Shown here: positions 3,234-64,000 of the stretch, piece by piece
Numbering within the stretch: the first letter of the stretch is position 1
Layout of the letters: each line of letters opens with the position of its first letter
From: an uncultured Clostridia bacterium
Lineage (GTDB): Bacteria; Bacillota; Clostridia; Christensenellales; UBA1242
DNA length: 64,000 bases
NCBI GenBank assembly: GCA_944380415.1
Contig: CALWHN010000001.1
Span: 1,201 to 65,200, forward strand
Reading direction: 5' to 3'
Translations under genes and position numbers: made by a program
Notes under the pieces: generated by a model
Seen by the model: only the letters and a program-made list of their open reading frames with translations
What the model was told of the DNA's origin: nothing
Database searches by the model: none

Positions 3234-3235
3234 AT

Positions 3236-3884: not shown

Positions 3885-3946
3885 TGTCGAAAATTTTTTA
3901 AAGGCAAATGAAATACTCCCAATTAAATAAAATTTATTGGAATTGG

Positions 3947-3975
3947 TTGGAGAAAATGACAATTTGTGATAGTAT
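3947..3975 (+). promoter_or_regulatory. SigA-type promoter for the frameshifted membrane-protein gene
   Basis: TTGGAG, a 17-nt spacer, then TAGTAT with an extended -10 TG (tgaTAGTAT). It is followed by AAGGAGG and the ATG at 3997. Confidence 0.55.
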
Positions 3976-3996
3976 GTATTTAGGAAAGGAGGTTAT

Positions 3997-4594: not shown

Positions 4595-4611
4595 AAGGAT
4601 TGTAAACAATT

Positions 4612-4645
4612 AAAAAGCCCATGATTACATGGGCTTTTTTGTTTT
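4612..4645 (+). terminator. Rho-independent terminator
   Basis: The stem aaaaagccc / gggcttttt encloses a 10-nt loop and is followed by a T-run. It lies 18 nt after the stop at 4594. Confidence 0.7.
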
Positions 4646-4691
4646 ATGAATTACAACTAATAGTTTAGAACAAATTGAACATATTAATAGC

Positions 4692-18492: not shown

Positions 18493-18557
18493 ATATATAA
18501 ATCTTGGCTAGTACTAAATAAATTTGGACTTTTTTGGAATATTAATTGGGAGGAAAC

Positions 18558-18629
18558 ATGAAAAAATTTTTGGGGATTGTAAGCTGTTTGGTTTTAATCT
18601 TGGTTGCAGGTGTTACTTTTGCTGCCTGC
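18558..18629 (+). other. Lipoprotein signal peptide of giant protein 1
   Basis: MKK, a hydrophobic core, then TFAA|C. The Cys codon is at 18627-18629. Confidence 0.65.
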
Positions 18630-24600: not shown

Positions 24601-27600
24601 AATTTGTTTCAGAAGAGCAATATGAGCTTCTTCCAGTTTTTGGCGGACACACTTCCTATCTTGTTTTAGAGATCAATTCATCTGGCATAATGTCACTCAT
24701 GGTTAAAACTTACAAAGAAAGCTCAGGAGGAGCTTATATAGACACTCTTTGTTCCCCAAGCCTTGAAAATGGTTCGGTTGTAGTTAATTATGGCGAAGAT
24801 ACAAAAGCTTTCCTTGAACTTGCAGAGCAAGGGGAAATTCTTTACAGCAAGATTTCTATGGAGGGAATGACAACGGCTTTTGGCCCAATTTCACTCTTGT
24901 ATATGAAAGGTTTTTATCTATATCTGTATGACAACTATGAAATATTGGTTGCAGATGGGACGTGGGAAGGCGTTTCCTATGGAGATATAAGCGGAATTAC
25001 TGGCGCCGAAATTAAAGAACTTATTTGCCAGCTGTTTGGAATTTCTTCAGCGCAAACAGATTCTGAAATTAAGGCGCAAATTAAAGAAATAATCGACGAA
25101 AAGGTTATTGCGCCCTTCAATAATTCATTAAATTCAATAAAAACAGACCTTGCGGCACTGCAAACCGAGTTAAACGACTTTATTTCAGAACTTGAAGGTC
25201 TTTTAACTGCTGCGGGCTATGAAAGTTCAGAATATAGCGAATTGTTGGAAAAGATTAATTCTTATTCAGCCTTAATTTCTCAGGCAAATACAGCAGTTTC
25301 TGGGATTTCTTCAATTTCTAGTGGAGAAGATGTTAAGAATTTACTCTTAAACGCAATTGAACCTGTAAGAGAAGGTATAACTGGTGCTTACTATGACTTT
25401 ATAATGTTCATGGAATCTAATGGCAATAAATTAGAGGAATACATAAACAACAACTTCTCAAGCGAAGAAGAAGTGATGGAAGCAATGAGCGGAATCTATT
25501 CGTTCATGATAGCTCTCGAATACGACAGATATGATATTATTGAAGAAGACGGAGGAATGACAAACGAGCTAATTAGCGGACTTGCTAAACTCTATGCTTT
25601 TGACGCTAGCGCTGGTTATGACACAATTCCAGTTGATATTGACGGCTTTATTGACGCTGGCTGGGATATTGCAAATAAGGGCGAAGAAAGCGAGTCAATT
25701 TGGATTTTCGAAGAAGGAAAACTTCCATATTTCAGACAAAACGAAGAAACTCAAAGAATTTATGATTTTGAAATTGAAGTAAATCCAAATAAAAATCAAA
25801 ATTCAATGATTAACAAAGATAATTCTTCTGTTGTTCTCTTCTACTATGACGTTGCAGATAAATCATTGCTAACAAATACTCAGCTTGCACAACTTGCAAA
25901 TAAAAACACTATTGCAATCGACGATTTCGTTAGAATTTTCAACATAAATGGAAATTTAGATTCAATTGGAAACTTTGAGCAATTTATCTTCCAAAGCTCA
26001 AATAGAAGCGTTGTTAGAATTATCAACGGTCAAGTTCAAATTGTTGGAACTGGATCAGCAACAATTACAATAACCCCAATGTATGGGCCTTCGCTCGGAG
26101 AGGTTCCATCATATTCAATCAACGTATATGTAATCTATCCGTTTGGAGAAACAAACATTTACAATGGAATTAGTGCTGAAACGGGAACAAACTCTTCAAA
26201 TAATCCAATAAACGTTGAAGAAGGCGAAGAGAGCGAGCCAATTACAATTATTAAAGGCGACGTTAACTATATAACGATCAAAACAGAAAGCAACATTGCT
26301 CTTGAAAACACTGTTTACAACTTCTTAACAAATTCAATTGCGCTTGATGTTTCAATCACACACCAAGGTGAAAATGGAACCGAGGTTGATTATGTTTCTG
26401 GCGGAGAAGACAACAAATTTAATATAAGCGGTCTTGCAGGGCAAGATGCAAACAAATTTATCGAAGGAACGCTTGGAATTACCGTCAATGAAGATGTAAG
26501 CGAGGACACAACATTTACATTCTTAGTTAACATCTTGCTTCAATCTGGCTCTCAGCCGTTCCCAAATTCATCTCCATATTTCATAAGCCAAGTTAACAAC
26601 ATTCTTTCTGGTTTGTTCAATGAATATTTCAACTTCAAAGTTTCTGTTAGAGCAGAAAGGCTTTTGCTTTCAATAAAAGAAGCTGAGATCGACCCTTCAA
26701 CAATAATTTCTGTTGATACAGAGCTTCATACAAACAGAGACGAAGACAGAGTTAAAGTAATGATAAAAGATGAAGCCGGAAACATTGTTTGGGCTTCTGA
26801 AAGCGTTGTTGAAGATTCTGACGGCAACATAAGATTTGTTACAGCAGAAGATTACGAAAATGGAACATTAATAAGCGGCCTTGTTTATGTCTTTGAAAAA
26901 GGCGCAACAAGTTCAATTTTCGAGGTCAATGGCGCAGGCCTTTGGGAGGACAACAGCACTAATTACAATGGCAATATAACCATTGCAAATGGTGTTTTGA
27001 GCGGGAATGTTTTAATTAGCGTTAGAGAAGATGCAAGAAAGACAATTGACACAACAAAGACCTACACTGTTGTTTTAACAGATTCCAACGAAGATGTTTC
27101 AAATTCGTTTAACTTTGTTTTAAAACCACAGCAAATTGTCAATGTTACCTACACCCACCACAACAGAACAGACGATTCAACAGAGAGTGGAATTAAAATT
27201 CAAGACGAGCCAAGTTCTGTTCTTGTTCCTGGTGACAACGGAATTTTAACAATTGGCCTCTATCCAACCTATGGAAGCTATAGCCGAATTGTTTTAGAGA
27301 GCCAAATTATTGATAACAACTACTACGTTTTGATGGAGCAGATGTATAAATCTGGTGACTTCTATCTTTCAACATCAACAACTGTTGGCTACAACAGCGA
27401 AAGAGACGTCAACAGGCTAACAATCTATAAGCCATCGGATTCAAACCTCAACACGGGTTACATCTATGTTAGAACAAGAATTTTGGAGAGCGTAAACCAA
27501 GGGCTTTACTTCCCAATTACAATAACAATCTATGACAAAGATGAGAACGGCGAAGAATATGTTGTAAAATCTGAAACAATAACGCTTGTTTCACAGGTCA

Positions 27601-30600
27601 TTGACGGGGCAGAAATCACAATTGACGGCGAAAAGGATGCAACAGTTGTAAGAGGCTATACCTATCCAATTCAAATTAGCGTTGAAGAAAGCCAAAGCCT
27701 TGCTGATTACAATTTGGTTGACTTTGACACAACGGGAGATGCAGACGACTCTGTAACAGTTTACTTCAATAGATCAGAATATGAAATTGTTGACGGAAGA
27801 AAGATTTACAACGGAACAGTTTCAATTGGTTTGGACGCAGAATTAAACGGCGACGGTGTCTTTAAAATTGAGACAATTGTTCAAAAAATTGTCAACGGGA
27901 GAATTGAAAGCACAACGGACAGCATTGAGCTCAGGGTTGTTGATTTCCTAATTGAAAGCGTTCAGATTAAAGGAAATGCAGAAGGAGACAATGTTTTCAA
28001 CACACCAGCTGCAATTGAAAAGGACTTATCGTTTGAGTTTATTTTAACCGAAACGCCTGAAATTTTCAGCGCAAGCCAAGAGGATTCAATTGATAGAATC
28101 AACAACGCAAAAGAAGAGTTCTTAAAATCGCTTTCATATAAACAATACGTTACAAACAAAGATAAAATATATCAGTATATTGTAAATACAGATAGAATTT
28201 TTGGTGTAAACAGAGAATATAACAATGGTGATAAATCTCAGCCAAGCCACATTTCAACCTCTCAAATGAGTGTTGTCTATGACCTCTTCTATTCTGGAGA
28301 TTTAACAGCGCTTGTAAACGGAACAAAAGTTCAAGAAAATGAATATTTCTCATTCGCTTATGACGGAGACTCAAACGGAACAAGCGGCCTTGGCGCAAGA
28401 ACAATTAGAGTTATCGGAAAGAGAATGGGAGCAATTAATTTAACATTAAGAATCGGCTATCAGCTTCCAGGAGTTGCAGAGGTTCAATATTTCAATTATA
28501 ACTTTACAATCAACGTTCAAATGTATTCAGATGAGGACAAACCAACCCCAATAGAAACAGAAGAGCAGTTTATTGAATATTTAAGTTCAACTTCTGATCA
28601 ATATGGCGAAACAAACTTCATTTTAATGAATGACCTTGTTTTGGAAAACTTTGTTCCATTTACAACGACAAACTTTGCGAGTTTAGATGGAAACAACAAG
28701 GTTATAACAATCAAAAGCTTCGACCTTTCAAATCAACCTGGTTCGCTCAACATTGGGCTTTTCCAAACTGTTTCAGAGGGCTCAACTCTTAAAAATCTTG
28801 TTGTAAATTACAATGAAACAGAGGGAATTTTCGTTGACGAAAGCCTCTATTCCTCAGTTAACTTTGGCGGAATTGCCGTTACAAACAATGGCGTTATCTA
28901 CAACTGCGAGGTTGTTTCAATTGATATGTCGTCAAACAACATGGTAACAGACGACGGCGGAATTGAAATTTACTTCAGTCAAACAAACAAAGATGCGCCA
29001 AAACTTGACAGCACAACTGTTCAAATTGCAGGCCTTGTTGTTACAAACTCGGCAACTGGAAGCATAACAAACAGCCGCGTTGGCGGAAAGGGAAGCTTTA
29101 CAAAAGTTGTTTACAACGAGGGAACTGGCGCAAGCGAAATTAATTATGATTACAGCAGAATAAACTTAATTGGCCAGGGGAATATGGCAGGCTTTGTTAT
29201 AACAAACAACGGAACAATTTCTGCATCATACTTTGCAAATGGCTTTATAACAAACAAGACGATTTCTGGGGCTCAGTGTGCAACAGCAGGCTTTGCAATT
29301 ACAAACACTTTAAGCTCAACAATAACCGGCTGCTACGCAGAAGGTTTCAGGCTTTCTTCAGACGGCCTAGATCAATTTATAACTGGCGGAGGAATAACTT
29401 CTCAGGGAGTTGCAGCAGGCTTCATCTATGAAAATGCTGGAACAATTTCCGACTGTTATTCTAACATTAAACTTGCAGGAGATAGTACAGGAAGGCTTGT
29501 TTCTGGGTTTGTGTACAGCAATGCAACAACCGGAACAATTGCAAGGTGCTATTCTGCTTCAACAATTGTTGGCGAACTTACAACCCAAATGCCATTTACT
29601 GGAAAAGATGCAAGAGAAAATTCTCTTCAACTAAATCCAGAGGGAATTATCAACAGCTATTATTTGGTTAAGAGATATGACACCGAAACTGTTTTAGAAG
29701 AGAAATATAACACTGGCGCAACCGCGCTTCAAGCCTCAACGTTAAATTCTTCAACCTTCTATGGCTTTGCAATGGCTTGGGAGGACGACGAGAACAACGG
29801 AATTTGGATTTGGAACGAAACATACAAATATCCAGAGCTTGTTTCAGCAAATCAAGTTGCAATTTCTGTTAGAAGAGTAATTGAAAACTATTCTTCGCTA
29901 ATAACTGGCGGAACTTCAACAGAAAGCTTAGATATATTCCCTTATATTCAAGGTTATGAATATGGAAGCGTAATTAATCCAATTATAATAAGAACTGCGG
30001 ACGAATTTAACAGAGTTTTCGGCCAGGAAACAAACCTTGTTGAAAACGCTTACTATGCAATCAGCCAAATGTATGACAAGGATCTTGGAATTGTTTTCGG
30101 AAGTTATCGCCTTGTTTCGTCGGTCAACTTTGAAGAACTTACAACAATTGAAAACATAAGAATTTCATCTTCAATCATGAATTTGGCGCAAAATAACAGT
30201 TATTTTGGAACTTTTGACGGAAATGGACTTGTAATTAGAAACGTTGAAATTGCGCTTGACAGCCAAAGCTCTGTTGGCCTCTTCTCAATGATAACTAGCG
30301 GAGGAGTTTTTAAGAACGCAACGATAACTGTTGTAACAGTTGCCGGCGGACAGCGAAGCGTCTATGCCGGAGCGGTTGCAGGGCTTGTTCAAAATTCTTC
30401 GGTTTCAAACGTAACAGTTCAACCTGTTACAACTTCTGGCGACAACCGCTCAAGAGTTTCTGGCCAAAATATAGTTGGCGGTGTTGTTGGAGCAGTTGTT
30501 GGAAATTCAAAAGTTTCAAACCTTGTTTCAAACATCTCTGTTGTCTCTGGAAATGCAAATGGATTGACCGACGCGCAATATTACTATGAAAACATTTTGA

Positions 30601-33600
30601 GGTCCAGCTCAATTATTCAAAACGGCGTGATTATCGACCAAAACAGCAACTACAGCTTTGCTGGCGGCGTCATCGGCGTTTTGGATATCTATCAAGATAT
30701 CAATGACAACATGGTAACATTCAGCGATCCAAACGCAATTCGCCTTCAATATGCGGGTCAAAACATCTCAATCCAGGGCGGTTTTGTTGGCGGAGTTGTT
30801 GGGTTTGTTGGCCCAAGCACATATCTTGCAGATGCAAGCTTTGTTCTAACGGGGCAACAAGATCAACTTAACCAAAGGTTAATCACCTATGGAAACACAA
30901 TTGGCGGCGTTGTTGGCGTTAACTACGGCGAACTTTATGAGCTTAAAATTGAACATTCAACAGAACTTCAACTTGCAATTGAAGACAACATGGAGGGCTA
31001 TTACAACAGCGCATCAACCTCAATCTTCCGCGGAAATTCAAGGCTCTTTAATTCAACAACATCAAGCCTTGTTGCAATTGGCGGGCTTGTTGGACAAATG
31101 ATGGACGGAGAGCTAACCGTTTCCTATTCAAAAGTTGACGTTTCTGCTTCTGCATCGTCATACTCCGGCGGCGTTATTGGAATTAACAATGCGTCAACAG
31201 ATTTCTATGAAATTTATTCCTTCGGAGATGTAAGCGGAAAGAAGGCAGGGGGGCTAATTGGCCTTAATAACGCAGAAATAACACTTGATAAGTGTGTTGC
31301 CTTCACATATTACTCAAAGGAAAATGCGGGCTTGAATGAAATAATAAACGTTGCTCAAGACTTTAACAGCGGAAATTTAACGTTTGCAGGCGCAAATATC
31401 ACAACGGGAGAGCCGTATAGCGGAAGACTTCAATTTACAACCGGCTCGAATAAAACGATTCTCGTTGAGTTTGCTGCCCAACCCCAAAGCCAAAACGCAA
31501 ATGCAAGCTATTTGACAATTAATATTGATGCCGCTAACATCATAAAACAGTGGGATATAAACGGCTATAATTTCTACACATACAGCAATGGAACAAACGA
31601 ATATGGCTTGATTAGAGAGCGTTTGTATAACAGCGATTTCACATATGGCTATTATTACACCAATCAAGAAAACAACAAGGTAACAGTTCTTTGGGAAACA
31701 GAGGACGGTCAGTTCTATTTTAGCACCGGAAGTGAACCAGATCTCAACGCAGATGGTGTTGCTCCAATTGAGTTTAGCGGCTCTCAATCCTATGTTTCAT
31801 TCACAAACATAAACTATGTGGATTTAACTGTAACAGATGCGGAAGACAAAGACGATTATGACACTGTTGATTCACTCACTAGCACGGGCAATGACAAAGT
31901 TGTAACTTATGCGTCATTTGAAATGACTCAGCTTCAAATTACTGAAATTCAGCTTAAAAAACTTACAATTGGCGCAATTTTGGGAGAAAACAGTGGAAAT
32001 GTTTTAATTACAAACGCAAGCCAAGCAAGCGTTTATGGAAATTTGGAGTTCGATTACAACGGCTTTACAATCAAGCTTTGGAACAGCGGCCTTGTAAACA
32101 GCGGCGCAACGAACAACCTTTTGGGGCTTACGGTCAACCTTTCAAACTATCAAGGCTATGAAATTGACGGCCAAACAATAAACAAAATGTTCTTTGGAAG
32201 CGAGTGGAGGCCAAACCTTTGGGAACTTAGAGATGGCTTCATCTTCCCAACTTTCAACTATGAAATCTCTTCAAACACGCTTTACATTGAAAAACCGCTT
32301 GACCTTTTGAAGTTGAACAACTATAACAAAGCGGACAACGTTGTAATCTTTGGCGATGACCCAGCAACAGTGTTCAATCCATATGATTATGAAGCTGGAA
32401 ACGTTTCAACATATGGCGAATTCACAGCGGCAGAGCTTGTTGGTTTAAGCAAAGGGCAAAATGGCGAGCTGATTTATGACATTAGCGTAATTCGCGGCAA
32501 CCTTTCTGTTAACTATTCAGATTACTACTTCAGTTCGTTCATGGGAACAATGTATGGAGAAAGCGATGAGACTCCGGTTTTAACCAATATTGACAAGGCG
32601 CTTTTCAACTTGATCTATGGCGGCGAAATCAGCAATTTGGTTTTCGACAATGATGTATCTCGCGAAACAACCTCAATGGGCGCGGTTCTTGCAAACTCAA
32701 TTGAAGGTCAAACAACTCTTGAAAACTTAATCTTCCAAAATATAACAATTGAAACGCAAAGAGAGCAGATTGGCGTAATTGCAAACAACATGGCAAACGT
32801 CTTTGATATTTCTAATGTTGAAATAAGAAATGTAACAATAACTTCAACTAATACAAGCAGAGATGCAAACCTTTCAATTGGTGCAATTGCGGGCGCAAAT
32901 ACTCCGGCAAGCGGGACTGTTTCAGCCTCAATTACCCTTAGCAATGTTTCCGTTTCTAACTTAACAATTGAAGCACAAACCAATGCTTTGTCAACTAGCG
33001 TCGGCGGCCTCTTTGGAAAGGTTGGCTATGGAACAACCTATGAAAATGTCAATGTTTCTGAAATTAAAATCAACGTTGGCTTAGGGGAAAGCAAAAATTC
33101 TACAAACCAAATTTTCGCCGGCGGCTTTGTTGGCGATGCAAGCGGAACAACGGCAACTTTTGGAAGTAACACAGTGGAAAGTGGTGGCGCATACACTCTT
33201 GCCCAAGAAATTGTAATCAAATTAGGAAAGGCGGCGGTTACATACGCCGGAGGAATCTTTGGATATATCGACTCAATTAATACAAACAATGGCGAATTAA
33301 CCATAAAAGACATCAATATTAGCTCTGTTACTGAAAATGACGACTCAGAAACCATTTCCTCAATGATTGTTGGCGGATTTGCCGGCCATGTTTCAACAAG
33401 CGGAAATTTAACCAACGTAGAAATTGATTTCGGAAAAGACACTGAAGGGGAGAATGAGGAAATCAAAACAACTAACGGTTCAATCGTCCTCAACACGGAC
33501 GTTTTCGACTCAACAAGCTCAATTCCATCTTCGGTTGGCGGCGTCTTTGGCGAGGCAACAAGCGGAACGCTTTCAAACGTTTCAGTTTCCAACGTTGAAA

Positions 33601-36600
33601 TCAATTTAACAAACAAGGGAGCAAATTCAAGTTATATAACAATCTTCGGCGGCCTTGTTGGCGAGGTGGAAACGTTGACAATTTCCGGAAACTCAAGTTT
33701 CACGGGAACAATAACAATTGACGGAAACGCAGGAACTTTCTATGGCGGCGGAATTGTTGGAAGCGCAACTGGAACAACAAGCGGCGGAATTGTTGGAAGC
33801 GCAACTGGAACAACAAATAGCCTAAACATTGGGAACCAAGAAGGTGTTAACAACGACATTGTTTCAAACGCAACAATCAACTTTAACAACACTGCATCCG
33901 GCTCAACCTACTATGTTGGCGGAGTTCTTGGAACGGGAACAACTGATTCAACAGATTCAACTGATACTGTTTACACAATTTCAAACTCAACAAATAATGG
34001 AAACATATCATTTAATGGTGTTGAAGTTAATGGCAATGTTTCGTTCGAGGGCGCAAACATAACAGTTGGCGGAATTGCAGGAGCAAACATCAAAAACGGA
34101 AAATTGAGCAACAATAAGTCCTATGGAGATATAACAATTGGAAACCTGGAGGTTGAAACAACAATAAGTTCTTCAACCAACTCAACAACAATTGTTGCCG
34201 GGGGAATTGCCGGAGGAATGACTAATGGCGGAACCGTTTCGGGCAACTGGGTTGGAGGAGACATAATAATTGTTGGAAGTTCAACAGAAAATTCTCCTTT
34301 GACAGGTTTAACCTTTACCGCTGGCGGAGTTGTTGGGTCAATGACTGGAACTGGAGAAATCTCCAACAACTACGCTTGGGGAAACATTGAGCTTAGCAAA
34401 AATGCGGACCTGTTTGATGGAACTGATTACGCAATTGCGGTGCTTAACGTTGGCGGAATTGCTGGTTCTTTCGCGTCAGGAACCTTCAAGGGAAACAACA
34501 GCCTAACTTCAATTTACATTGTTCAAAGGGCGCAAACACACAACGTTTATGCAATGATTGGAGATAAAGGAGATAAAGATGGTGAAGATATTACAGCCAC
34601 CGAAAATTCAAAACAAACTAACTATTACACCCACCAAATAACCTTAACAACGGAGCTTACTAATATTGCAACAAATGTCTATTACAGGCGCGGCTCTGGA
34701 ATGTTAAGCAAGTTTAATGATGTTATAAACAATGAAAAGCTTCCAGCTGATCAAAAGGAAGCAGGCTCTAAACTAAGTCCAACAACTTGGACTGGCGGGA
34801 ATTTAGAAGAAGGCAAATATTACGTCATGACTTCAAGTGTAAGTATTTCCTCAAGCGTAGCAACGTTAAACGGCCACCTTGTTGGAGATGGTTACATAAT
34901 TAATTCAAGCGCAACGCCTTTCACAAGTGTAAACGGCTATGTTTCTGGAATTTTGTTTGGAATTGCTTCGACAAGCGAAGGAACTGGCGCCGGCGGAAGA
35001 GTTTCTGGCTCAACTGACAGCCTTCCAAACGGCGTTGCAACAACAAACAATGGAATAATCTTCGCGGTAAACGTTTCTGCAACCGGTTATTATAACGGTT
35101 CTCTAACCCAGGGAAACGTTAGATATTCAATCCTTTCTGGAATTGCAAACACAAACAACGGTTTAATTTCAGACAGCGGCGTTGTTCTAAACGTTAAAGA
35201 TGCATATGCGGGAATTTCTGCTTCAAACGGCGGAGTTATTGCAAACACATATGTAACCGGCGCGGTTCATGAGGGCGCTAATTGGAGTTTTGCCGGCGGA
35301 AGCGACGGCGGAATTTACAACAGCTATGCCGCAATTAAAGTTCAAAGCGCGGTTGAAAGCATATACCAAACAAGCGGTTTAATTGTTGAAGGCGAAAAAG
35401 TTGAAAACTTCTTCTATGACAGATTTGCAACGGAAACAGCAAGCGTTGCCGATTCAGAGGAAGAAAAAACAACAGACGATATGTCAACGGTTGATGGAAC
35501 GGAAACCGATATTCTGGAAAATGACGACGCTAAAAAGCTTCTTGGCGAAAACTGGACCCAAAGCACTTCCTACAACTTTGGCTATCCATACCTCGGCGGC
35601 GGGGCGTATGTCGAATTTGGTTACATGGCAACATGTATTGGAGATGTGACCTTTTCTCAAACCGGCGTTGTTGACGGAACTGTTAGTGGATCAACGGGAG
35701 ATTATGATGTATATCGTTTCACAATAGCTGGGCAAAATATATATATTGCTTATAGGTCCTTATGGGGAAGGAATTACTATTATAGCTTAACAAAACCTTC
35801 AGGAAGCATTACAACCATGACCCGGTTGAGTGGCAACACATTAACTTTGGAAATAAATGGAAAAACTTATGTAATCGCTCTTTCAAGAAGATTACCTAGT
35901 GGAACAATTTCATGTACTGTTACTTATGGAGAAAATTTTTCAAGCAACTCTTATGTTCCAAACCCAGGAAAGTTGGCTCAGATGCTTGCAAACAATAAAA
36001 ACATAATTCTCCTTACGGATATTGATATCAGCAAATTGGACGGAGAAAAATCCGGAACTCTTGCTAACTTTAATAGCTCAACTTGGACAGGCCAAGATTA
36101 CAGCGCAACATTGGATGGAAACAACTATCAAATCTTCAACCTTCCAAACACAACTGGCGGCTTTGTAAAAGAACTTACCGGAACAATTCAAAACGTTGCG
36201 ATTAATTATGCTTCAGGGACGAATGTTACCGGGGCAAACGTTGGAGGTTTTGACCGTGCAGGAGGAGTTGCTGCGGTTAATAGAGGAACAATTGATAACG
36301 TAAGTTCTTCCGGGGCAACAGTTTCTGCAACCAATGACGCCGGCGGTTTAGTTGGATATAACAGCGGGGTCATAACCGAAACCGGAAGTATAAGCAGTTC
36401 CGGAAGCATAACCCACTCCGCGAACTATAACATTGTTTCTGGAGATAATAATGCGGGGGGAATTGTTGGCTTTGTTGACAACGGCACCTCAACAATTTCA
36501 AATAATTCAAACTATGGAACTGTTGAAGGGACACGTGTTGGCGGAATTGCGGGAGAATTGGGGGCAGATTCAACTGCAGGTATTTCATATGGCTATAACT

Positions 36601-37922
36601 ATGGGGCTATCACTGGAAGTTCTGGAGCCGGAGATCAAGCAGCCGGCGGAATTGTTGGATTAATTAGCAATTCATCATCTAATGTGGAGAATTCTTATAA
36701 CTCTGCTTCTGTTGGAGGAACCGTCAACGCAGGAGGAATAGTTGGACTGGTTGCTAAAAAAGCAGGAACAAAGCCATTTGGTGAGAATAAATATTATATA
36801 TTGACTGAGGTTAATAGTTCAGGTGTGTACTCGTTAGGTAATAGCGAGCATTGGGATGATTGGGAGCATCCGGAGGCAAACAAAACAATGAATGGAATTG
36901 ATCCTTCGGCAACAAATGGGAACAGAGGTGATTCAACTGTTTTTTCAGATTTAGAAAATAGATATAAAGATGGAAATTATAGTCTTGTTTTTAGAGTTTA
37001 TATTGAAGGCAATAATACTATAGAAGCAATGTCTATAAATGGTTATTATAATGGTTACTATACTGATGATGATTATGTCAAAGCTTCATTTTCGGATGAT
37101 GGCACCTGTACTCTAAAAGCCATATTTGGAAATTATTACGTCGAGTTCTCATGCCGGAGATCGAATAATAAGAGGTGGCTTCATGATTTCGACATAACAA
37201 TAACTGATGTTACCAGCAATGTAAATATTTTCGATAATATAAATGAAGGCGCGGTTTCTGTTAGTGGAGACAATTCCTATGCAGGCGGAATTGTTGGAAG
37301 AACCATGCAAAATGTTTCTGTTTCTACTTCTAAAAATTCCGGGAATGTTGAAAACTCTGCCACAAATGGAACCAATTTTGCCGGCGGAATTGTTGGAGGA
37401 TCATACCCAGGCGGAGCTTCAAATGTTGGAAAAGTTGAAAACTGCTTGAATACTGGAGCGATAACCGCTAATGGCGGAGAAGGTTGGGCGCACGGAATAG
37501 GCAACGATCTTGCAACAATTTCGGACAGTAGAAACGATGGGGCGATTTCAGGCAGTTCTGGGGCGACAGATGGAGATAGTGGCACATTAGATGAGGACCG
37601 TCTACCAAGTTTCCAATCTTCAAACAACTGGTCATCACATGTTGACGAAGCTGTTTCTGGCGGGAGCATGGGAAAAGGTGATTATTACTATGACTCTACA
37701 AACAAGACATATTATGTTTACACTGGGCTAGGCCTTGCATATGTCGCTAATGAGGAAGGTTCAGTTGACTCAGAAGCGAAAGTTAACCTCATGAACAACA
37801 TAGATTTAAGCGATTATAATGTTGTTTATGGTATCTTTATTATTAATCTAGCGATAATAATGCAGCATACAACTCTAAACGATTATATAATTATACAGGA
37901 ACCTATTAATAGTCTTTTCTAA
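18558..37922 (+). CDS. Giant surface lipoprotein (6454 aa) with Ig-like segments and multiple GLUG-type repeat modules
   Basis: A single uninterrupted 19.4-kb ORF. GGGAGGAAAC precedes ATG 18558. The signal peptide MKKFLGIVSCLVLILVAGVTFAAC has a lipobox Cys at residue 24. Big_2-like strands are present (RGTATITATS..., VGTGSATITITP). There are dozens of GG[ILV][VA]G...N.G.I motifs (for example NVGGIVGVNDTTGKIVGYNF and AGGIVGFVDNGTSTISNNSNYG), which are characteristic of the GLUG motif family. Confidence 0.85.
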   Translation: MKKFLGIVSCLVLILVAGVTFAACGSSSPNITISSNVTELEIVLGSGEETKTVEFNVEGYGNGSGQLTFSVEEQELNTISCTPTYQGNGRTTLTITGKNRGTATITATSMQGSVSYVITVKVVQPITGLNQADEFKDKLYVISGSSLNLSQEKIWNYSPSNTNQRDLVFSFVGESQGCRIEDGNLVVDQDCGLSSVTIRAESAFNSSVYCEIPVTILSPIEVVAQTNGKTIVESVTDPNSQVSNFFEIFPRETEYQNSLTVTLIISAGNEKQALNVEAVFSSGEEKFAAPQTGYYFDRASQTHRYTFLIQANSQDAGKIDSLTFRVSYSGYAAGESDYSSDSIALNVSSYNKALQVDVNGQTGRVEIDVFESSINLVDGEILEISLLPGNLKQDQNYIILWAEDFENLPISLYKLDSTRRNYICVFGYDQNGNAVGSVENGIRYAKIQSGTKLYAFINNNYEGLTGTNKQSTIYAQAVEFWNSEISANERAFTSIDFVINPNAKDIFLAQPNDQGVLEADKDNKTIFIELGETEIAYIAVDPSTFTIGANSVVTIANESLAEIGELVEHAVSEDYVFARFEIVANKVGSTTLTVTLSDGKQVDFNLVVISPLEELEMGLESVVVGETEIGSDIVPYRHLPDTTVIVGETTPFIALNKLSISNNGGAGIRLTKNATPETAQYYLGYHYYDYTFENGQDIKNITLEDIDVENIDFNTTSSIINTSLLANQTIIEAVNSSTEGAVLVRISVYAMGADGEYGDQPVGYFYYLIDFFIPTSGLTLSSGTLELYTYDTIGDKFLVNDVSASIGEISVTVNPVNQGLTPTYINNLKIYVNGNSVNIMEHFTNDVLYLYFDGSIASSRNNAALEIVRSFENNTFTFRFQALRREANYIFAMVLSEVDESKTFTALGRIIAKEAVEITDIEMINANEESPIYIENVFLTQDDFESEEAYLEYINDIIDNPYQLELIYNLYSSNGNEITNPSLEFEIDFNLISGEREYYTDINGNKVNYIQIIQENGKTYVRVERAAWDYSSYYALSEEEREQTSLEAHKVLVQFGANATISVYPTSNYYNSYNGWNGEEPIVYIPITVADGKTSETSLQLWDLDDLDLLRLYPAANFTIMANISMIQESSGSVSGVYQDYIPVEEFYGTLRGDPNFADGGSMPLIISISPLFKKIASDAVVENFSYIVTEAYSSEDIVIDNTKNVSMVNGETYLGGLANVNEGTIRNVAAIGEYMEDTSDLSTLSMFSGAQLYMSGQRVPASQIILLVGINSTYDNNALLVEMISQMDIRAGELVRYTGLLVGLNRGTIEITDTSTVDGIGAMAVFGANVGGIVGVNDTTGKIVGYNFYGNALGTESAGGIAALNRGEIKNCNVLNGGASLYGINVFVLGDNVYSYASEQDIDIQFASGGIVAISEGGIIQGCSAEFGTGTNPPDSSVGEGGIFEQLIEPELGSSVWGKRVAQAGTYTIKQQAEYDFNVSGRNSGSVITGTLEFFALSGGQFGGFENVVIQIPELSADSPSHYFEANGRNYRIYADYETNINYVYITIYDVTGEETTLRTINVYRNKGSQNIDGKFETLNSVDLVISSSPIYSGGLVGILSETKLSQSFFDGTLGVRDTNGGGLIGLLNESGQTEPLVENCYAVLGYNNSYVDRLSNSGYILRQGLFICSGSLNEIKYCYVSSNNSGFNPSYNGDGQATGSFHSAIRNSNLTSIFDILDYNDEFLGYDIEEWRDKTFVDLVNQYNYIEGSMNVTLGNSILSANSQIVGDRLYGSFELNVSLNNTDYGNGTLSLMLYKNGSQIETKTIEFRNFSAVGDSSIEYTFDDLGIKVVLTPEYLSSTSSRGINFVAMDVSSGETLYQSKISAWESTSTNNGVTNRTLRSSGNFGFRTVETTINHDGQSQVVSQNLYTYPSNSQSYEIYRFTYNGRIYTVNLSDSGSQSYNLEIKYLPYETATYGTTVLRKWVNVENSITQGQIQFTDSITVSANLNLFPDSINEQLNQNFTFTATFDGEEFVSEEQYELLPVFGGHTSYLVLEINSSGIMSLMVKTYKESSGGAYIDTLCSPSLENGSVVVNYGEDTKAFLELAEQGEILYSKISMEGMTTAFGPISLLYMKGFYLYLYDNYEILVADGTWEGVSYGDISGITGAEIKELICQLFGISSAQTDSEIKAQIKEIIDEKVIAPFNNSLNSIKTDLAALQTELNDFISELEGLLTAAGYESSEYSELLEKINSYSALISQANTAVSGISSISSGEDVKNLLLNAIEPVREGITGAYYDFIMFMESNGNKLEEYINNNFSSEEEVMEAMSGIYSFMIALEYDRYDIIEEDGGMTNELISGLAKLYAFDASAGYDTIPVDIDGFIDAGWDIANKGEESESIWIFEEGKLPYFRQNEETQRIYDFEIEVNPNKNQNSMINKDNSSVVLFYYDVADKSLLTNTQLAQLANKNTIAIDDFVRIFNINGNLDSIGNFEQFIFQSSNRSVVRIINGQVQIVGTGSATITITPMYGPSLGEVPSYSINVYVIYPFGETNIYNGISAETGTNSSNNPINVEEGEESEPITIIKGDVNYITIKTESNIALENTVYNFLTNSIALDVSITHQGENGTEVDYVSGGEDNKFNISGLAGQDANKFIEGTLGITVNEDVSEDTTFTFLVNILLQSGSQPFPNSSPYFISQVNNILSGLFNEYFNFKVSVRAERLLLSIKEAEIDPSTIISVDTELHTNRDEDRVKVMIKDEAGNIVWASESVVEDSDGNIRFVTAEDYENGTLISGLVYVFEKGATSSIFEVNGAGLWEDNSTNYNGNITIANGVLSGNVLISVREDARKTIDTTKTYTVVLTDSNEDVSNSFNFVLKPQQIVNVTYTHHNRTDDSTESGIKIQDEPSSVLVPGDNGILTIGLYPTYGSYSRIVLESQIIDNNYYVLMEQMYKSGDFYLSTSTTVGYNSERDVNRLTIYKPSDSNLNTGYIYVRTRILESVNQGLYFPITITIYDKDENGEEYVVKSETITLVSQVIDGAEITIDGEKDATVVRGYTYPIQISVEESQSLADYNLVDFDTTGDADDSVTVYFNRSEYEIVDGRKIYNGTVSIGLDAELNGDGVFKIETIVQKIVNGRIESTTDSIELRVVDFLIESVQIKGNAEGDNVFNTPAAIEKDLSFEFILTETPEIFSASQEDSIDRINNAKEEFLKSLSYKQYVTNKDKIYQYIVNTDRIFGVNREYNNGDKSQPSHISTSQMSVVYDLFYSGDLTALVNGTKVQENEYFSFAYDGDSNGTSGLGARTIRVIGKRMGAINLTLRIGYQLPGVAEVQYFNYNFTINVQMYSDEDKPTPIETEEQFIEYLSSTSDQYGETNFILMNDLVLENFVPFTTTNFASLDGNNKVITIKSFDLSNQPGSLNIGLFQTVSEGSTLKNLVVNYNETEGIFVDESLYSSVNFGGIAVTNNGVIYNCEVVSIDMSSNNMVTDDGGIEIYFSQTNKDAPKLDSTTVQIAGLVVTNSATGSITNSRVGGKGSFTKVVYNEGTGASEINYDYSRINLIGQGNMAGFVITNNGTISASYFANGFITNKTISGAQCATAGFAITNTLSSTITGCYAEGFRLSSDGLDQFITGGGITSQGVAAGFIYENAGTISDCYSNIKLAGDSTGRLVSGFVYSNATTGTIARCYSASTIVGELTTQMPFTGKDARENSLQLNPEGIINSYYLVKRYDTETVLEEKYNTGATALQASTLNSSTFYGFAMAWEDDENNGIWIWNETYKYPELVSANQVAISVRRVIENYSSLITGGTSTESLDIFPYIQGYEYGSVINPIIIRTADEFNRVFGQETNLVENAYYAISQMYDKDLGIVFGSYRLVSSVNFEELTTIENIRISSSIMNLAQNNSYFGTFDGNGLVIRNVEIALDSQSSVGLFSMITSGGVFKNATITVVTVAGGQRSVYAGAVAGLVQNSSVSNVTVQPVTTSGDNRSRVSGQNIVGGVVGAVVGNSKVSNLVSNISVVSGNANGLTDAQYYYENILRSSSIIQNGVIIDQNSNYSFAGGVIGVLDIYQDINDNMVTFSDPNAIRLQYAGQNISIQGGFVGGVVGFVGPSTYLADASFVLTGQQDQLNQRLITYGNTIGGVVGVNYGELYELKIEHSTELQLAIEDNMEGYYNSASTSIFRGNSRLFNSTTSSLVAIGGLVGQMMDGELTVSYSKVDVSASASSYSGGVIGINNASTDFYEIYSFGDVSGKKAGGLIGLNNAEITLDKCVAFTYYSKENAGLNEIINVAQDFNSGNLTFAGANITTGEPYSGRLQFTTGSNKTILVEFAAQPQSQNANASYLTINIDAANIIKQWDINGYNFYTYSNGTNEYGLIRERLYNSDFTYGYYYTNQENNKVTVLWETEDGQFYFSTGSEPDLNADGVAPIEFSGSQSYVSFTNINYVDLTVTDAEDKDDYDTVDSLTSTGNDKVVTYASFEMTQLQITEIQLKKLTIGAILGENSGNVLITNASQASVYGNLEFDYNGFTIKLWNSGLVNSGATNNLLGLTVNLSNYQGYEIDGQTINKMFFGSEWRPNLWELRDGFIFPTFNYEISSNTLYIEKPLDLLKLNNYNKADNVVIFGDDPATVFNPYDYEAGNVSTYGEFTAAELVGLSKGQNGELIYDISVIRGNLSVNYSDYYFSSFMGTMYGESDETPVLTNIDKALFNLIYGGEISNLVFDNDVSRETTSMGAVLANSIEGQTTLENLIFQNITIETQREQIGVIANNMANVFDISNVEIRNVTITSTNTSRDANLSIGAIAGANTPASGTVSASITLSNVSVSNLTIEAQTNALSTSVGGLFGKVGYGTTYENVNVSEIKINVGLGESKNSTNQIFAGGFVGDASGTTATFGSNTVESGGAYTLAQEIVIKLGKAAVTYAGGIFGYIDSINTNNGELTIKDINISSVTENDDSETISSMIVGGFAGHVSTSGNLTNVEIDFGKDTEGENEEIKTTNGSIVLNTDVFDSTSSIPSSVGGVFGEATSGTLSNVSVSNVEINLTNKGANSSYITIFGGLVGEVETLTISGNSSFTGTITIDGNAGTFYGGGIVGSATGTTSGGIVGSATGTTNSLNIGNQEGVNNDIVSNATINFNNTASGSTYYVGGVLGTGTTDSTDSTDTVYTISNSTNNGNISFNGVEVNGNVSFEGANITVGGIAGANIKNGKLSNNKSYGDITIGNLEVETTISSSTNSTTIVAGGIAGGMTNGGTVSGNWVGGDIIIVGSSTENSPLTGLTFTAGGVVGSMTGTGEISNNYAWGNIELSKNADLFDGTDYAIAVLNVGGIAGSFASGTFKGNNSLTSIYIVQRAQTHNVYAMIGDKGDKDGEDITATENSKQTNYYTHQITLTTELTNIATNVYYRRGSGMLSKFNDVINNEKLPADQKEAGSKLSPTTWTGGNLEEGKYYVMTSSVSISSSVATLNGHLVGDGYIINSSATPFTSVNGYVSGILFGIASTSEGTGAGGRVSGSTDSLPNGVATTNNGIIFAVNVSATGYYNGSLTQGNVRYSILSGIANTNNGLISDSGVVLNVKDAYAGISASNGGVIANTYVTGAVHEGANWSFAGGSDGGIYNSYAAIKVQSAVESIYQTSGLIVEGEKVENFFYDRFATETASVADSEEEKTTDDMSTVDGTETDILENDDAKKLLGENWTQSTSYNFGYPYLGGGAYVEFGYMATCIGDVTFSQTGVVDGTVSGSTGDYDVYRFTIAGQNIYIAYRSLWGRNYYYSLTKPSGSITTMTRLSGNTLTLEINGKTYVIALSRRLPSGTISCTVTYGENFSSNSYVPNPGKLAQMLANNKNIILLTDIDISKLDGEKSGTLANFNSSTWTGQDYSATLDGNNYQIFNLPNTTGGFVKELTGTIQNVAINYASGTNVTGANVGGFDRAGGVAAVNRGTIDNVSSSGATVSATNDAGGLVGYNSGVITETGSISSSGSITHSANYNIVSGDNNAGGIVGFVDNGTSTISNNSNYGTVEGTRVGGIAGELGADSTAGISYGYNYGAITGSSGAGDQAAGGIVGLISNSSSNVENSYNSASVGGTVNAGGIVGLVAKKAGTKPFGENKYYILTEVNSSGVYSLGNSEHWDDWEHPEANKTMNGIDPSATNGNRGDSTVFSDLENRYKDGNYSLVFRVYIEGNNTIEAMSINGYYNGYYTDDDYVKASFSDDGTCTLKAIFGNYYVEFSCRRSNNKRWLHDFDITITDVTSNVNIFDNINEGAVSVSGDNSYAGGIVGRTMQNVSVSTSKNSGNVENSATNGTNFAGGIVGGSYPGGASNVGKVENCLNTGAITANGGEGWAHGIGNDLATISDSRNDGAISGSSGATDGDSGTLDEDRLPSFQSSNNWSSHVDEAVSGGSMGKGDYYYDSTNKTYYVYTGLGLAYVANEEGSVDSEAKVNLMNNIDLSDYNVVYGIFIINLAIIMQHTTLNDYIIIQEPINSLF
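33745..33816 (+). repeat. Perfect 36-bp in-frame tandem duplication (2 copies) inside giant gene 1
   Basis: The unit gcggcggaattgttggaagcgcaactggaacaacaa occurs at 33745-33780 and again at 33781-33816. It encodes GGIVGSATGTTS GGIVGSATGTTN. Confidence 0.9.
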
Positions 37923-61726: not shown

Positions 61727-62921
61727 AACAATCGAGAAGAACTTGGAGGGAGTTTTTGCCCATCTTAGCGACGTTGCACTTTTCAATCAAGAAAAAGTTT
61801 TGAAGGCTTTTCAAAAGAACAGGGTCAGCGCGAACAGTTTTTTTGGAACAACGGGATATGGATATGATGATGTTGGACGTCAAACGCTTTCAAAGATCTA
61901 TGCAGATTGCTTTGGGGCAGAAGATGCAATTGTTTCTCCAAATATAACTTGCGGAAGCCATGCGATTACAATTGTTTTGTTTGGACTCTTGCGCCCGGGC
62001 GACACAATGCTTTCCGTTACGGGTAAGCCTTATGACACCTTGGACGAAACAATTTTTGGCGAGAGCGAGGACAATGGCTCACTAAAAGATTTTAACATTT
62101 CATATGAGCAGATAGATTTTTTAGATGGGAAGTTAAATTTGGCCGAAATTGAAAGCCAAGTTTCAAAAATAAAGCCAAAAGTTGTCTACGTTCAGCGTTC
62201 AAGAGGCTATGCTAAAAGAAAAGCGCTTTTAATTTCGGACATAAAGGAAATTGTTGAAATTGTTAGAAAAACAAGCCCAAAAAGCTTTGTTGTTGTTGAC
62301 AATTGCTATGGCGAATTTGTTGAAAAAATGGAGCCAACCGAAGTTGGGGCAGATGTAATTGTTGGCTCGCTAATCAAAAACCCGGGAGGAGGCCTTGCCT
62401 CAACAGGCGGATATATTGCGGGAACAAAGCGGGCAATTGACCTTATTTCTTCGCGCCTAACATCTCCGTCGCTAAAAACCGAAGTTGGCTCATATGAGCG
62501 CGGCTATCGCGAATTTTTCCAAGGCTTTTTCCTTGCGCCCCATGTTGTTAAAGAAGCTTTAAAAGGGGCCTATTTAATTGGCGAAGTTTTGGCACAAAAG
62601 GGGGCGGAAATCTTTCCAGCTTCAACGCAAATTTCTGGAGATATAATAAAGTCTATTGAGTTTAAAACAGAGGAGGAAATGGTTTCCTTCGTTCAAAAAA
62701 TTCAAAAATTTTCGCCAGTTGATAGCTTTGTTACTCCGATGCCTTGGGACATGCCAGGTTACCTTGACCCAATTATAATGGCCGCAGGAACTTTTGTTTC
62801 CGGCGCATCAATCGAGCTTTCATGCGATGGCCCGGTTAAGCCGCCATATATTGCATATTTCCAAGGTGGAATTACCTATGAGCAAATAAAACTTCTTGGA
62901 ATTGAACTTTTAAATGAATAG
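61713..62921 (+). CDS. YnbB / 'aluminium resistance' family PLP-dependent enzyme (Met_gamma_lyase-like)
   Basis: 402-aa ORF. Contains FFGTTGYGYDDVGRQTLSKIYADCFGAEDAIVSPNITCGSHAI and LRPGDTMLSVTGKPYDTLDE, which I recall as characteristic of this family. It overlaps miaA by 14 nt. Confidence 0.65.
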   Translation: METIETIEKNLEGVFAHLSDVALFNQEKVLKAFQKNRVSANSFFGTTGYGYDDVGRQTLSKIYADCFGAEDAIVSPNITCGSHAITIVLFGLLRPGDTMLSVTGKPYDTLDETIFGESEDNGSLKDFNISYEQIDFLDGKLNLAEIESQVSKIKPKVVYVQRSRGYAKRKALLISDIKEIVEIVRKTSPKSFVVVDNCYGEFVEKMEPTEVGADVIVGSLIKNPGGGLASTGGYIAGTKRAIDLISSRLTSPSLKTEVGSYERGYREFFQGFFLAPHVVKEALKGAYLIGEVLAQKGAEIFPASTQISGDIIKSIEFKTEEEMVSFVQKIQKFSPVDSFVTPMPWDMPGYLDPIIMAAGTFVSGASIELSCDGPVKPPYIAYFQGGITYEQIKLLGIELLNE

Positions 62922-62951
62922 ACGCAGCATTGAGGTTTTTCAATAGAATAG

Positions 62952-62977
62952 GCCAAGATGTTTCAGTCTTGGCTTTT
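62952..62977 (+). terminator. Rho-independent terminator after the mutSL-miaA operon
   Basis: The hairpin gccaaga-tgtttcag-tcttggc is followed by TTTT. Confidence 0.65.
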
Positions 62978-63019
62978 AAAAAAACGGTAAAAAACTAATT
63001 AGAAAATTAACAAAAATTG

Positions 63020-63048
63020 TTGACAGTTTCATAAAAATAGTGTAATAT
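63020..63048 (+). promoter_or_regulatory. SigA-type promoter of the tRNA operon
   Basis: TTGACA, a 17-nt spacer ending in TG, then TAATAT. It lies about 20 nt upstream of tRNA-Pro. Confidence 0.65.
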
Positions 63049-63068
63049 AACACTTGCCTGTTATGTTT

Positions 63069-63144
63069 CGGGGTGTAGCGCAGTTGGTAGCGCACGTGGT
63101 TTGGGACCATGGGGCCGGGAGTTCGAGTCTCTTCACCCCGACCA
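63069..63144 (+). tRNA. tRNA-Pro (anticodon TGG), CCA encoded
   Basis: Hand-folded cloverleaf. Acceptor is cggggtg/caccccg, the anticodon loop is ttTGGga, the T-loop is ttcgagt, and the length is 76 nt. Confidence 0.85.
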
Positions 63145-63178
63145 AATAACATAGCAGTTGCCGCAAAAGGATTTTGTC

Positions 63179-63255
63179 GGACCTTTAGCTCAGTTGGTTA
63201 GAGCAACCGGCTCATAACCGGTCGGTCCTAGGTTCGAGTCCTAGAAGGTCCACCA
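63179..63255 (+). tRNA. tRNA with CAT anticodon (elongator Met or lysidine-dependent Ile2), CCA encoded
   Basis: Acceptor is ggacctt/aaggtcc, the anticodon arm is accgg-ctCATaa-ccggt, and the length is 77 nt. It is not an initiator: there is no GGG/CCC anticodon stem, and positions 1 and 72 are paired. Confidence 0.8.
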
Positions 63256-63259
63256 TTGC

Positions 63260-63336
63260 GGCTCGGTAGTTCAGTTGGTTAGAACGCCAGCCTGTCACGC
63301 TGGAGGTCGTGGGTTCGAGCCCCATCCGAGTCGCCA
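63260..63336 (+). tRNA. tRNA-Asp (anticodon GTC), CCA encoded
   Basis: Acceptor is ggctcgg/ccgagtc, the anticodon arm is ccagc-ctGTCac-gctgg, and the length is 77 nt. Confidence 0.85.
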
Positions 63337-63340
63337 TTAT

Positions 63341-63416
63341 GCCTTGATAGCTCAGTCGGTAGAGCAAGGGACTGAAAATCCCTGTGTCGGTGGTTCGATT
63401 CCGCCTCAAGGCACCA
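63341..63416 (+). tRNA. tRNA-Phe (anticodon GAA), CCA encoded
   Basis: Acceptor is gccttga/tcaaggc, the anticodon arm is aggga-ctGAAaa-tccct, the T-arm is ggtgg-ttcgatt-ccgcc, and the length is 76 nt. Confidence 0.9.
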
Positions 63417-63600
63417 ATGTGCATTGAGAAGGAGAGAACCAACAAATCTCCTGAAAGGGAGGGTTCGATTCCGCCTCAAGGCACCAATGTGCATTGAGAG
63501 GAGAGAACCACAAAATCTCCTGAAAGAGAGGGTTCGATTCCGCCTCAAGGCACCAATGTGCATTGAGAGGAGAGAACAAGGGTTCGACTAATCTCAAGCA
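63392..63600 (+). repeat. Tandem array (periods 70, 69 and 50 nt) of tRNA-Phe-derived units
   Basis: An identical 38-nt block, ggttcgattccgcctcaaggcaccaatgtgcattgaga, starts at 63392, 63462 and 63531. A degenerate fourth copy (ggttcgactaatctcaagca) starts at 63581. The inter-block segments are near-identical to each other. Confidence 0.9.
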
Positions 63601-63613
63601 TAAGCCGCAGCTA

Positions 63614-63698
63614 GGTTGGGTTGTAGAGTGGTCAAATACATCAGACTGTAAATCTGACGCCTCCGGCTTCGATGGTTCGAATCCATCCCCAACCACCA
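63614..63698 (+). tRNA. tRNA-Tyr (anticodon GTA), class II long variable arm, CCA encoded
   Basis: Acceptor is ggttggg/cccaacc, the anticodon arm is tcaga-ctGTAaa-tctga, the variable arm is 13 nt, the T-arm is gatgg-ttcgaat-ccatc, and the length is 85 nt. Confidence 0.85.
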
Positions 63699-63732
63699 AT
63701 AAAATTAATTGCTTTTAATTGGCAAATAAGAA

Positions 63733-63757
63733 AGGGCAAAACATTGCTCTTTATTTT
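63733..63757 (+). terminator. Candidate terminator of the tRNA operon
   Basis: The hairpin agggcaa-aaca-ttgctct (7 bp, one G-U pair) is followed by ttatttta. Confidence 0.45.
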
Positions 63758-64000
63758 ATGCCAATTCTCAACCCAAAACGCCTTTAAATTTTCCGGATAT
63801 TGATAAAAACCTTTTAAAAAACAAAGGAAAGGGCAATAAACACGAGGGCGATAATTACACAATTTCTATAATATTTTCTCATATAATTATCTTATCAGAA
63901 GAAATTTTTGATTTAAACGGGAAAACTGGCAATTTATGTCGAAATATGGCAAATAATAAACGATATTTGGAGGCGTGGCGGATTGTTATAAAAAACTTTC

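Follow-up and report, generated by a model that had tools for sequence, protein, structure and literature searches.

A strain-variable tandem array built on the 3' end of tRNA-Phe in a tRNA operon of gut Clostridia resembles the tRNA-linked repeats of Escherichia coli

Results

Organization of the tRNA operon

The window, by which we mean the whole analyzed stretch of 64,000 nt, ends with a tRNA operon on the plus strand. The tRNA genes for Pro, Met, Asp, Phe and Tyr were identified with ARAGORN and Rfam (Table 1), and the spacers between them measure in this order 34, 4, 4 and 197 nt. The original prediction had pointed out that the 197 nt between tRNA-Phe and tRNA-Tyr stand apart from the 4 to 34 nt elsewhere in the operon, and both programs confirmed this. 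The genes upstream of the operon are miaB, mutS, mutL, miaA and a gene of the Met_gamma_lyase family. A promoter-like site precedes tRNA-Pro, and the same TTGACA/TAATAT motif is also located 5' of tRNA-Pro in related genomes; a terminator-like hairpin with a T-run follows tRNA-Tyr. Because the segment between tRNA-Phe and tRNA-Tyr, which is filled by an array of repeats, lies between these two candidate signals, the array is most likely transcribed inside the pre-tRNA.

Table 1. Position of the tRNA genes, the repeat units and the putative transcription signals in the window
Feature	Position	Strand	Length (nt)	Basis or remark
Promoter-like site TTGACA-17-TAATAT, upstream of the tRNA operon	63020-63048	+		consensus match only
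tRNA-Pro(tgg)	63069-63144	+		ARAGORN, Rfam
tRNA-Met(cat)	63179-63255	+		ARAGORN, Rfam
tRNA-Asp(gtc)	63260-63336	+		ARAGORN, Rfam
tRNA-Phe(gaa)	63341-63416	+		ARAGORN, Rfam; repeat template: final 25 nt (63392-63416)
Full repeat unit 1	63417-63486	+	70	predicted rod fold -28.6 kcal/mol, z -4.3
Full repeat unit 2	63487-63555	+	69	94% identical to unit 1; fold z -3.6
Terminal unit without CCA, compact hairpin GTGCATTGAGA...TCTCAAGCAT	63556-63613	+	58	predicted fold -19.4 kcal/mol, z -3.3
tRNA-Tyr(gta)	63614-63698	+		ARAGORN, Rfam; final gene of the transcription unit
Terminator-like hairpin and T-run, 3' of tRNA-Tyr	63731-63760	+		consensus match only; hairpin 63731-63752

An AT-rich spacer of about 390 nt follows the terminator-like site (window 63699-64000; positions 4350-4815 in the contig L103 of the same species). 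In conspecific contigs a separate TTGACA...TAATAT promoter-like site is located beyond this spacer ahead of a tRNA-Thr gene, which would be positioned just outside the 3' end of the window. Elsewhere in the window, one ORF on the plus strand (18546-37922) would encode a giant protein of 6458 aa, and positions 1-4000, which hold four ORFs on the minus strand, show a GC content of 0.28 compared with about 0.38-0.41 in the remaining window.

Composition of the array

Tandem Repeats Finder identified positions 63392-63577 as a tandem repeat with a period of 69, 2.7 copies, 96% matches and a score of 342. The original prediction had described the gap as a 38-nt block present three times free of mismatches, followed by a decayed fourth copy, with a block tail that mimics the 5' acceptor strand of tRNA-Phe. 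Each of these points proved correct. The block GGTTCGATTCCGCCTCAAGGCACCAATGTGCATTGAGA occurs in exact copies at 63392, 63462 and 63531, with 0 copies expected in shuffled sequences; the decayed copy at 63581 begins with GGTTCGA; and the mimic GCATTGA can form six of seven pairs with TCAAGGC.

The array starts at the first base 3' of the CCA of tRNA-Phe. The repeated part corresponds to positions 52-76 of this tRNA and comprises the T-loop, the 3' strands of the T-stem and of the acceptor stem, the discriminator A and the CCA; it is identical at 25 of 25 nucleotides in both full units. Unit 1 is composed of a linker of 4 nt, GCATTGA as the 5' mimic, the purine-rich segment GGAGAGAACC, the core CAAATCTCCTGAAAGG and the exact 25 nt of the tRNA-Phe 3' end with the terminal ACCA, and the units contain purine runs with GGA. 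The two full units of the window differ from each other at 4 positions. The terminal unit retains the initial 22 nt and a decayed 3' part and has neither the core nor the CCA.

Neither the rest of the window nor about 1.3 Mb of related loci contained further copies of the units, and an assignment to a dispersed or mobile family was rejected on this ground. The segments of 31-32 nt between the blocks are near-identical and not unrelated spacers, which excluded a CRISPR array. A coding function was also rejected: a frame of 26 codons starts with an ATG after each CCA, but this ATG is missing in other species and the period of 70/69 nt moves the reading frame from unit to unit.

Predicted fold of the units

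The 5' and 3' parts of a unit (GTGCATTGAG..GGAG.GAACC and GGTTC..TTCC..CTCAAGGCAC) are degenerate inverted complements of each other, and the predicted fold is therefore a rod. The rod is closed by an acceptor-like stem of 9-10 bp with the pair G1-C72 and a single A·G mismatch at position 3. Two additional helices, which use up the T-loop, and a small apical hairpin of the GNRA type form the interior, and the CCA or ACCA tail remains free. For the units of the window the calculated energies range from -25 to -29 kcal/mol with z values between -3.2 and -4.3, and the terminal unit also keeps the rod.

Each unit had originally been regarded as a relic of tRNA-Phe that had lost the D-arm. This description holds for the last 25 nt, but it is not supported for the body of about 41 nt in front of them. 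In semi-global alignments, the first ~41 nt of a unit matched the tRNA-Phe body no better than shuffled sequence did (z -0.5 to 0.9, p 0.18-0.92), and the match to Phe was no better than the match to the other four tRNAs. A search with the Rfam model RF00005 produced no match on the units at E up to 10, and ARAGORN in its pseudogene-sensitive and D-armless modes (-ps, -ps80, -mt) made no call on the plus strand, so that the pseudogene-sensitive tRNA scan suggested at the outset did not recognize the units as tRNA. Weak ARAGORN calls on the minus strand only reflect the palindromic character of the units. Folding pointed in the same direction and gave the rod hairpin with its free ACCA tail and not a D-arm-less cloverleaf: a cloverleaf-like fold reaches -11.1 kcal/mol compared with -25.2 kcal/mol for the rod and is thus about 14 kcal/mol worse.

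Two details of the relic description can be treated in the same way. The motif cctGAAAg was thought to be a remnant of the Phe anticodon loop, but the GAAA is replaced by GCAA in five other species. The proposed hairpin AGGAGA...TCTCCT does exist in the sequence, and an analogous pairing is available in some relatives, for example AAGAGA/TCTCTT in L011; as a fold it loses against the rod, with an ensemble probability of about 0. A tRNA pseudogene was rejected on the basis of the missing plus-strand calls by Rfam and ARAGORN, relaxed and D-armless modes included, and a relic of the whole tRNA with an anticodon remnant on the basis of the alignment test and the GAAA/GCAA variation. A derivation from a tRNA can thus be demonstrated for the final 25 nt of each unit and no further.

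Homologous arrays in related species

The genomes closest to the window are MAGs of uncultured gut Clostridia/Christensenellales. The synteny from the upstream genes to the tRNA operon is common to twelve species, and homologues of the array are present at the same locus in about 10 related gut Clostridia species. Homologous units follow tRNA-Phe in L003, L005, L007, L009, L011, L014 and L085, and decayed units in L004 and L010. Units are absent from L008, in which Phe and Thr are separated by 12 nt, and from L013, which has an AT-rich spacer only.

Across species the length of the units varies from 66 to 84 nt. Copies inside one genome are 94-100% identical and between species only parts are common, a pattern which points to concerted evolution or recent re-expansion. 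The inter-block segments of 31-32 nt are homologous between species. A core of 16 nt, CAAATCTCYTGMAAGG (CAAAUCUCCUGMAAGG as RNA), is shared by all full units, which are otherwise diverged. The 5' mimic varies together with the 3' acceptor strand of its own locus: GCATTGA is combined with TCAAGGC in the window, GCATCGA with TCGAGGC in L004 and GCAGCGG with CCGCGGC in L085.

The unit of every species is predicted to fold as a rod with an ACCA overhang, and the predicted apical structure differs between subgroups. In an alignment of 12 units the rod pairing is realized in 78% of the cells compared with 36-55% for slid partners. Six pairs change on both sides, a number which is also reached in 31 of 500 shuffles of these few and related sequences. 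The comparison thus argues for retention of the rod fold with modest support from covariation.

In L085 (2441-2690) the acceptor stem of tRNA-Phe contains a U4·C69 mismatch, and the 5' mimic of the unit has a G4 that pairs with C69. This may mean that an exchange with the array altered the 3' strand of the tRNA, or it may be an error of the MAG. A metagenome scan for a pattern of two core copies recovered one new relative and three unrelated coding repeats. The latter, in L083, L086 and L087, are matches to a coding tandem repeat of 18 nt (AAATCTCCTGCAAGGAAA), which agrees with the pattern by chance and is unrelated to the tRNA array.

Copy number in strains of the same species

For the strain-level comparison we searched the 90% cluster of a neighbouring protein, which has 60 members. 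The conspecific set consists of the window and five contigs from independent samples that span the locus. These contigs share 96.7-97.9% identity with the window over 3.3 kb upstream and 96.9-99.5% downstream, and we therefore assigned them to the species of the window. The flanking regions are collinear.

All copy numbers are derived from short-read assemblies, in which many contigs end at the array locus, and are provisional. With this proviso, four full units were counted in L090, three in L098 and two each in L095, L099 and the window, and L103, a contig with 6.5x coverage, contains none and carries only the terminal hairpin of 58 nt in front of tRNA-Tyr. The comparison of copy number in related genomes, which had been proposed together with the original prediction, accordingly gave 0, 2, 2, 2, 3 and 4 full units in the six spanning assemblies. 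The 13 full units represent seven sequence types, which are mosaics of 5 variable columns; three of the 5 are located in predicted loops and one is a change from C-G to U·G. The range from 0 to 4 units among conspecific strains indicates that the array expands and contracts rapidly and that full units are dispensable.

The window shares the 58-nt terminal hairpin with L103. In L090 (5012-5080), and also in L095, L098 and L099, an AT-rich tail of 99 nt is found in place of this hairpin, and two haplotypes can therefore be distinguished at the 3' boundary of the array. The 99-nt tail holds a terminator-like hairpin (AAAATCGTTT...AAACGATTTTT) directly before tRNA-Tyr.

Discussion

A slippage-driven array that is probably processed like tRNA

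We consider the array to be of the same type as the tRNA-linked repeats (TLRs) of E. coli, that is, driven by slippage, hypervariable and dispensable, co-transcribed with the tRNAs and probably cut out by the tRNA-processing enzymes. We assign a probability of about 0.68 to this reading as a whole. The head-to-tail arrangement of the units, their homology across species, the likeness of the copies within a genome and the strain counts of 0-4 argue for rapid expansion and contraction by slippage or unequal crossing-over. The first of the readings offered originally was amplification of a tRNA 3' half by unequal crossover. Amplification by this route or by slippage is supported by the head-to-tail units, their within-genome likeness and the 0-4 full units.

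At the level of DNA, slipped-strand mispairing or unequal crossing-over between the exact 38-nt blocks changes the length of the array, and the 3' end of the functional tRNA-Phe gene is itself one of the repeat copies. At the level of RNA, each unit would fold on itself during transcription and give a rod which resembles a minihelix and ends in an unpaired (A)CCA. Since a rod of this kind is similar in shape to the tRNA half formed by the acceptor and the T-arm, the units are probably released in the way tRNAs are, with RNase P as the presumed activity at the 5' side and exonucleolytic trimming to the CCA at the 3' side. The products would be short-lived by-products of about 65 nt ending in CCA, and removal of the units would leave tRNA-Phe with a trailer of 4 nt instead of a structured trailer of 197 nt.

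According to this proposal, selection would act only on the processability of the units, because an uncut unit would hinder the maturation of tRNA-Phe and tRNA-Tyr; this would explain why the closing stem and the CCA are kept while the interior drifts. The units would have no essential function in trans. For the units of the window, folding predicts base pairs of U(-1) and G(-2) with A73 and C74, which could shift or hinder cleavage by RNase P. In the global MFE structure of the Phe-array-Tyr transcript the 5' strand of tRNA-Phe is mis-paired with a later unit, a possible folding cost if local folding fails.

A possible function of the array in trans or in cis

A model in which the array is a purely neutral spacer leaves the sequence conservation of the 16-nt core unexplained, and the fact that most species of the clade still have the array may indicate some benefit. 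For these two reasons we reserve a minor, though clearly not negligible, share of probability for a function of the array in trans or in cis.

In the first variant, which takes up the third of the original readings (processed minihelix-like small RNAs or decoys), the units would be functional small RNAs: excised CCA-ended mimics of a minihelix would act in trans as a decoy or sponge for RNase P, the CCA-adding enzyme, a tRNA-targeting toxin, a T-box leader or an RNA-binding protein, with a dose that depends on the copy number. In agreement with such a role, most species keep the acceptor-like closing stem and the ACCA overhang with compensatory changes, and the 16-nt core is conserved in sequence; in E. 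coli, the RNA that accumulates from the TLR rtT has the CCA of a repeat as its end. Moreover, three rRNA-linked TLRs of E. coli (rrA/B/F) bind Hfq and CsrA in vitro (PMC8144298). By analogy the units might bind CsrA or Hfq, and the purine runs with GGA are the only hint in this direction. On the other side, the TLRs of E. coli tRNA operons are still without an established function, and an early claim that linked rtT to the stringent response was withdrawn (PMC8144298). In the Clostridia, one conspecific strain and two related species do without full units, the apical structure changes from subgroup to subgroup, and no partner gene is linked to the locus. A small-RNA function thus appears rather improbable to us.

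Regulation in cis, which we regard as even more doubtful, would mean that the number of rods modulates read-through, folding or processing and in this way sets the output of tRNA-Tyr (or tRNA-Phe) in a strain-variable, contingency-like manner. The location of the array immediately in front of tRNA-Tyr, with which the transcription unit closes, would suit this role, as would the variable copy number, the terminator-like tail which some strains have ahead of tRNA-Tyr, and the possibility, seen in the MFE structure of the whole transcript, that repeated complementary segments mis-pair with the acceptor strand of tRNA-Phe. The rods, however, are not followed by a U-tract and are hence not intrinsic terminators, and neutral slippage predicts the variation in copy number equally well.

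A more far-reaching formulation combines both variants. In this formulation the rods are deliberate CCA-tailed mimics of the tRNA acceptor, cut by RNase P, which act as decoys or sponges in trans or set tRNA-Tyr in cis with the copy number as a dosage switch. It seems to us improbable as well; if it were true, these acceptor mimics and the E. coli TLRs would represent a general, convergently evolved class of small RNAs embedded in tRNA operons.

Integration scars and assembly artefacts

The second reading offered originally traces the units to scars which a mobile element left by integrating and excising repeatedly at the 3' end of tRNA-Phe. In the form considered here, with att duplications that were amplified later, it is very improbable. 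It has a basis in the fact that integrases leave direct repeats of tRNA 3' ends, and in related genomes 3'-end duplications with inverted partial copies are found at tRNA-Ser and tRNA-Trp. Downstream of the operon, however, the relatives that span the locus contain the housekeeping genes spoIIAA/AB, sigF, an aaRS, dnaG and rpoD, and the inspection of the sequence past the operon, which had been recommended, revealed no integrase or island beside the locus in any of them. Neither the 25-mer of the tRNA-Phe 3' end nor the core of the units had an exact match in viral contigs, and a phage attP was rejected on these grounds. In addition, only 31-32 nt lie between the blocks and these segments are homologous across species, and no dispersed copies occur in about 1.3 Mb of related sequence. 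The reading of the array as integration scars is therefore unsupported, and an ancient origin of this kind is at most conceivable.

That the array is an artefact which would collapse to one copy is hardly credible: short-read contigs often end at the array locus and the units at the contig ends of L007, L009, L011 and L085 are 100% identical, but the two units of the window differ, unique sequence borders the array on either side, repeats are present at the same site in about 9 other species, and of the five further independent conspecific assemblies four contain the array and one the terminal hairpin only. The recurrence of the same array with unit-specific variants in independent assemblies thus rules against a simple assembly duplication and leaves the exact copy numbers uncertain.

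Comparison with known systems

The array shares single features with several known systems. Its likeness to the attL/attR duplications which integrative elements generate at tRNA 3' ends is the direct repetition of the 3' part of a tRNA gene; the differences are the spacing of only 31-32 nt, the missing integrase or cargo and the homology of the units between species. With tRNA pseudogenes and tRNA-like minihelices the units share the perfect T-loop, the 3' strands of the T-stem and the acceptor stem, the discriminator A and the CCA, and their 5' strand pairs with the 3' strand of the acceptor. They differ in that they have no 5' strand of the T-stem, are predicted to fold as rods and are missed by the tRNA models, and compared with a tRNA pseudogene the body of the unit shows no significant similarity to tRNA-Phe. 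A period of about 70 bp, near-identical units and a strain-variable copy number are also typical of bacterial minisatellites (VNTRs). Here, in contrast, an essential tRNA gene includes one of the copies, and the surrounding operon encodes stable RNAs with which the array is presumably transcribed.

Duplications of a TLR-like kind were also observed at other tRNAs in related Clostridia. In L023 (20035-20330) tRNA-Ser(gga) is concerned, and its 3' 19 nt recur 92 nt downstream. Behind both copies stand the T-arm in inverted orientation (CGGGATTCGAACCCG) and T8, which resembles a terminator made from a reversed tRNA fragment. In L060 (11683-11960) the duplicated segment is the 3' ~20 nt of tRNA-Trp, with the second copy 178 nt downstream, and an inverted partial copy (GGGGACCGATTCGAACAC) together with a hairpin similar to one in L023 lies between the duplicates.

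The closest counterpart is provided by the TLRs, which have been known in E. coli since 1978. They include the 178-bp repeats of tyrT with the rtT/RttR RNA and were reportedly described by Egan and Landy in 1978 and by Rudd in 1999. E. coli contains 22 TLRs at ten loci with 1-5 repeats per locus, and their hallmark is that the last 18-19 bp are identical to the 3' end of the upstream tRNA or rRNA (PMC8144298). In the tyrT-tyrV region of E. coli K-12 we found the 3' 19 nt of tRNA-Tyr six times with a period of 178 nt downstream of tyrV, and the annotated 3' end of rttR coincides exactly with the CCA of a repeat. In the MFE fold of a tyrT unit the internal segment GGGGAAGGAU is paired with the repeated AUCCUUCCCC, and CACCACCA is free.

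Both kinds of repeats are located in a tRNA operon immediately after a tRNA, and both end in an exact copy of the 3' end of this tRNA with its CCA, which measures 18-19 nt in E. coli and 25 nt in the array of the Clostridia. Both occur in tandem: E. coli has 1-5 units, the window two full units and a decayed one, and the conspecific strains 0 to 4 full units. In both an internal segment is predicted to pair with the repeated 3' end and to leave an NCCA overhang. The sequences themselves are not similar: the Rfam family of the RtT RNA (RF00391) was without a match both over 62900-64000, with E values up to 10, and in the entire window at the gathering score. The units are also shorter, with 69-84 nt compared with about 100-180 nt in E. 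coli, the host belongs to a gut lineage of the Firmicutes/Clostridia and not to the Enterobacteria, and the family to which the array belongs was seen at only one locus in the Clostridia clade. A further difference is the strain-level variation in copy number, which is documented for the array of the Clostridia. From the agreement in architecture and the missing match to RtT we infer that the array is an analogue of the E. coli TLRs in another phylum and not a homologue.

In practice the array breaks short-read assemblies at the locus, and a naive repeat finder could misread it as a cluster of tRNA pseudogenes or as a CRISPR-like array. With units of about 70 nt and a natural variation from 0 to 4 copies it provides a compact system for studying tRNA-like processing and questions of cost and benefit. 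As an independent, non-homologous case in a distant phylum it shares with the E. coli TLRs the copy of a tRNA 3' end, the internal complement and the NCCA overhang, and the recurrence of this design suggests that it arises repeatedly from the way in which tRNA operons mutate and are processed.
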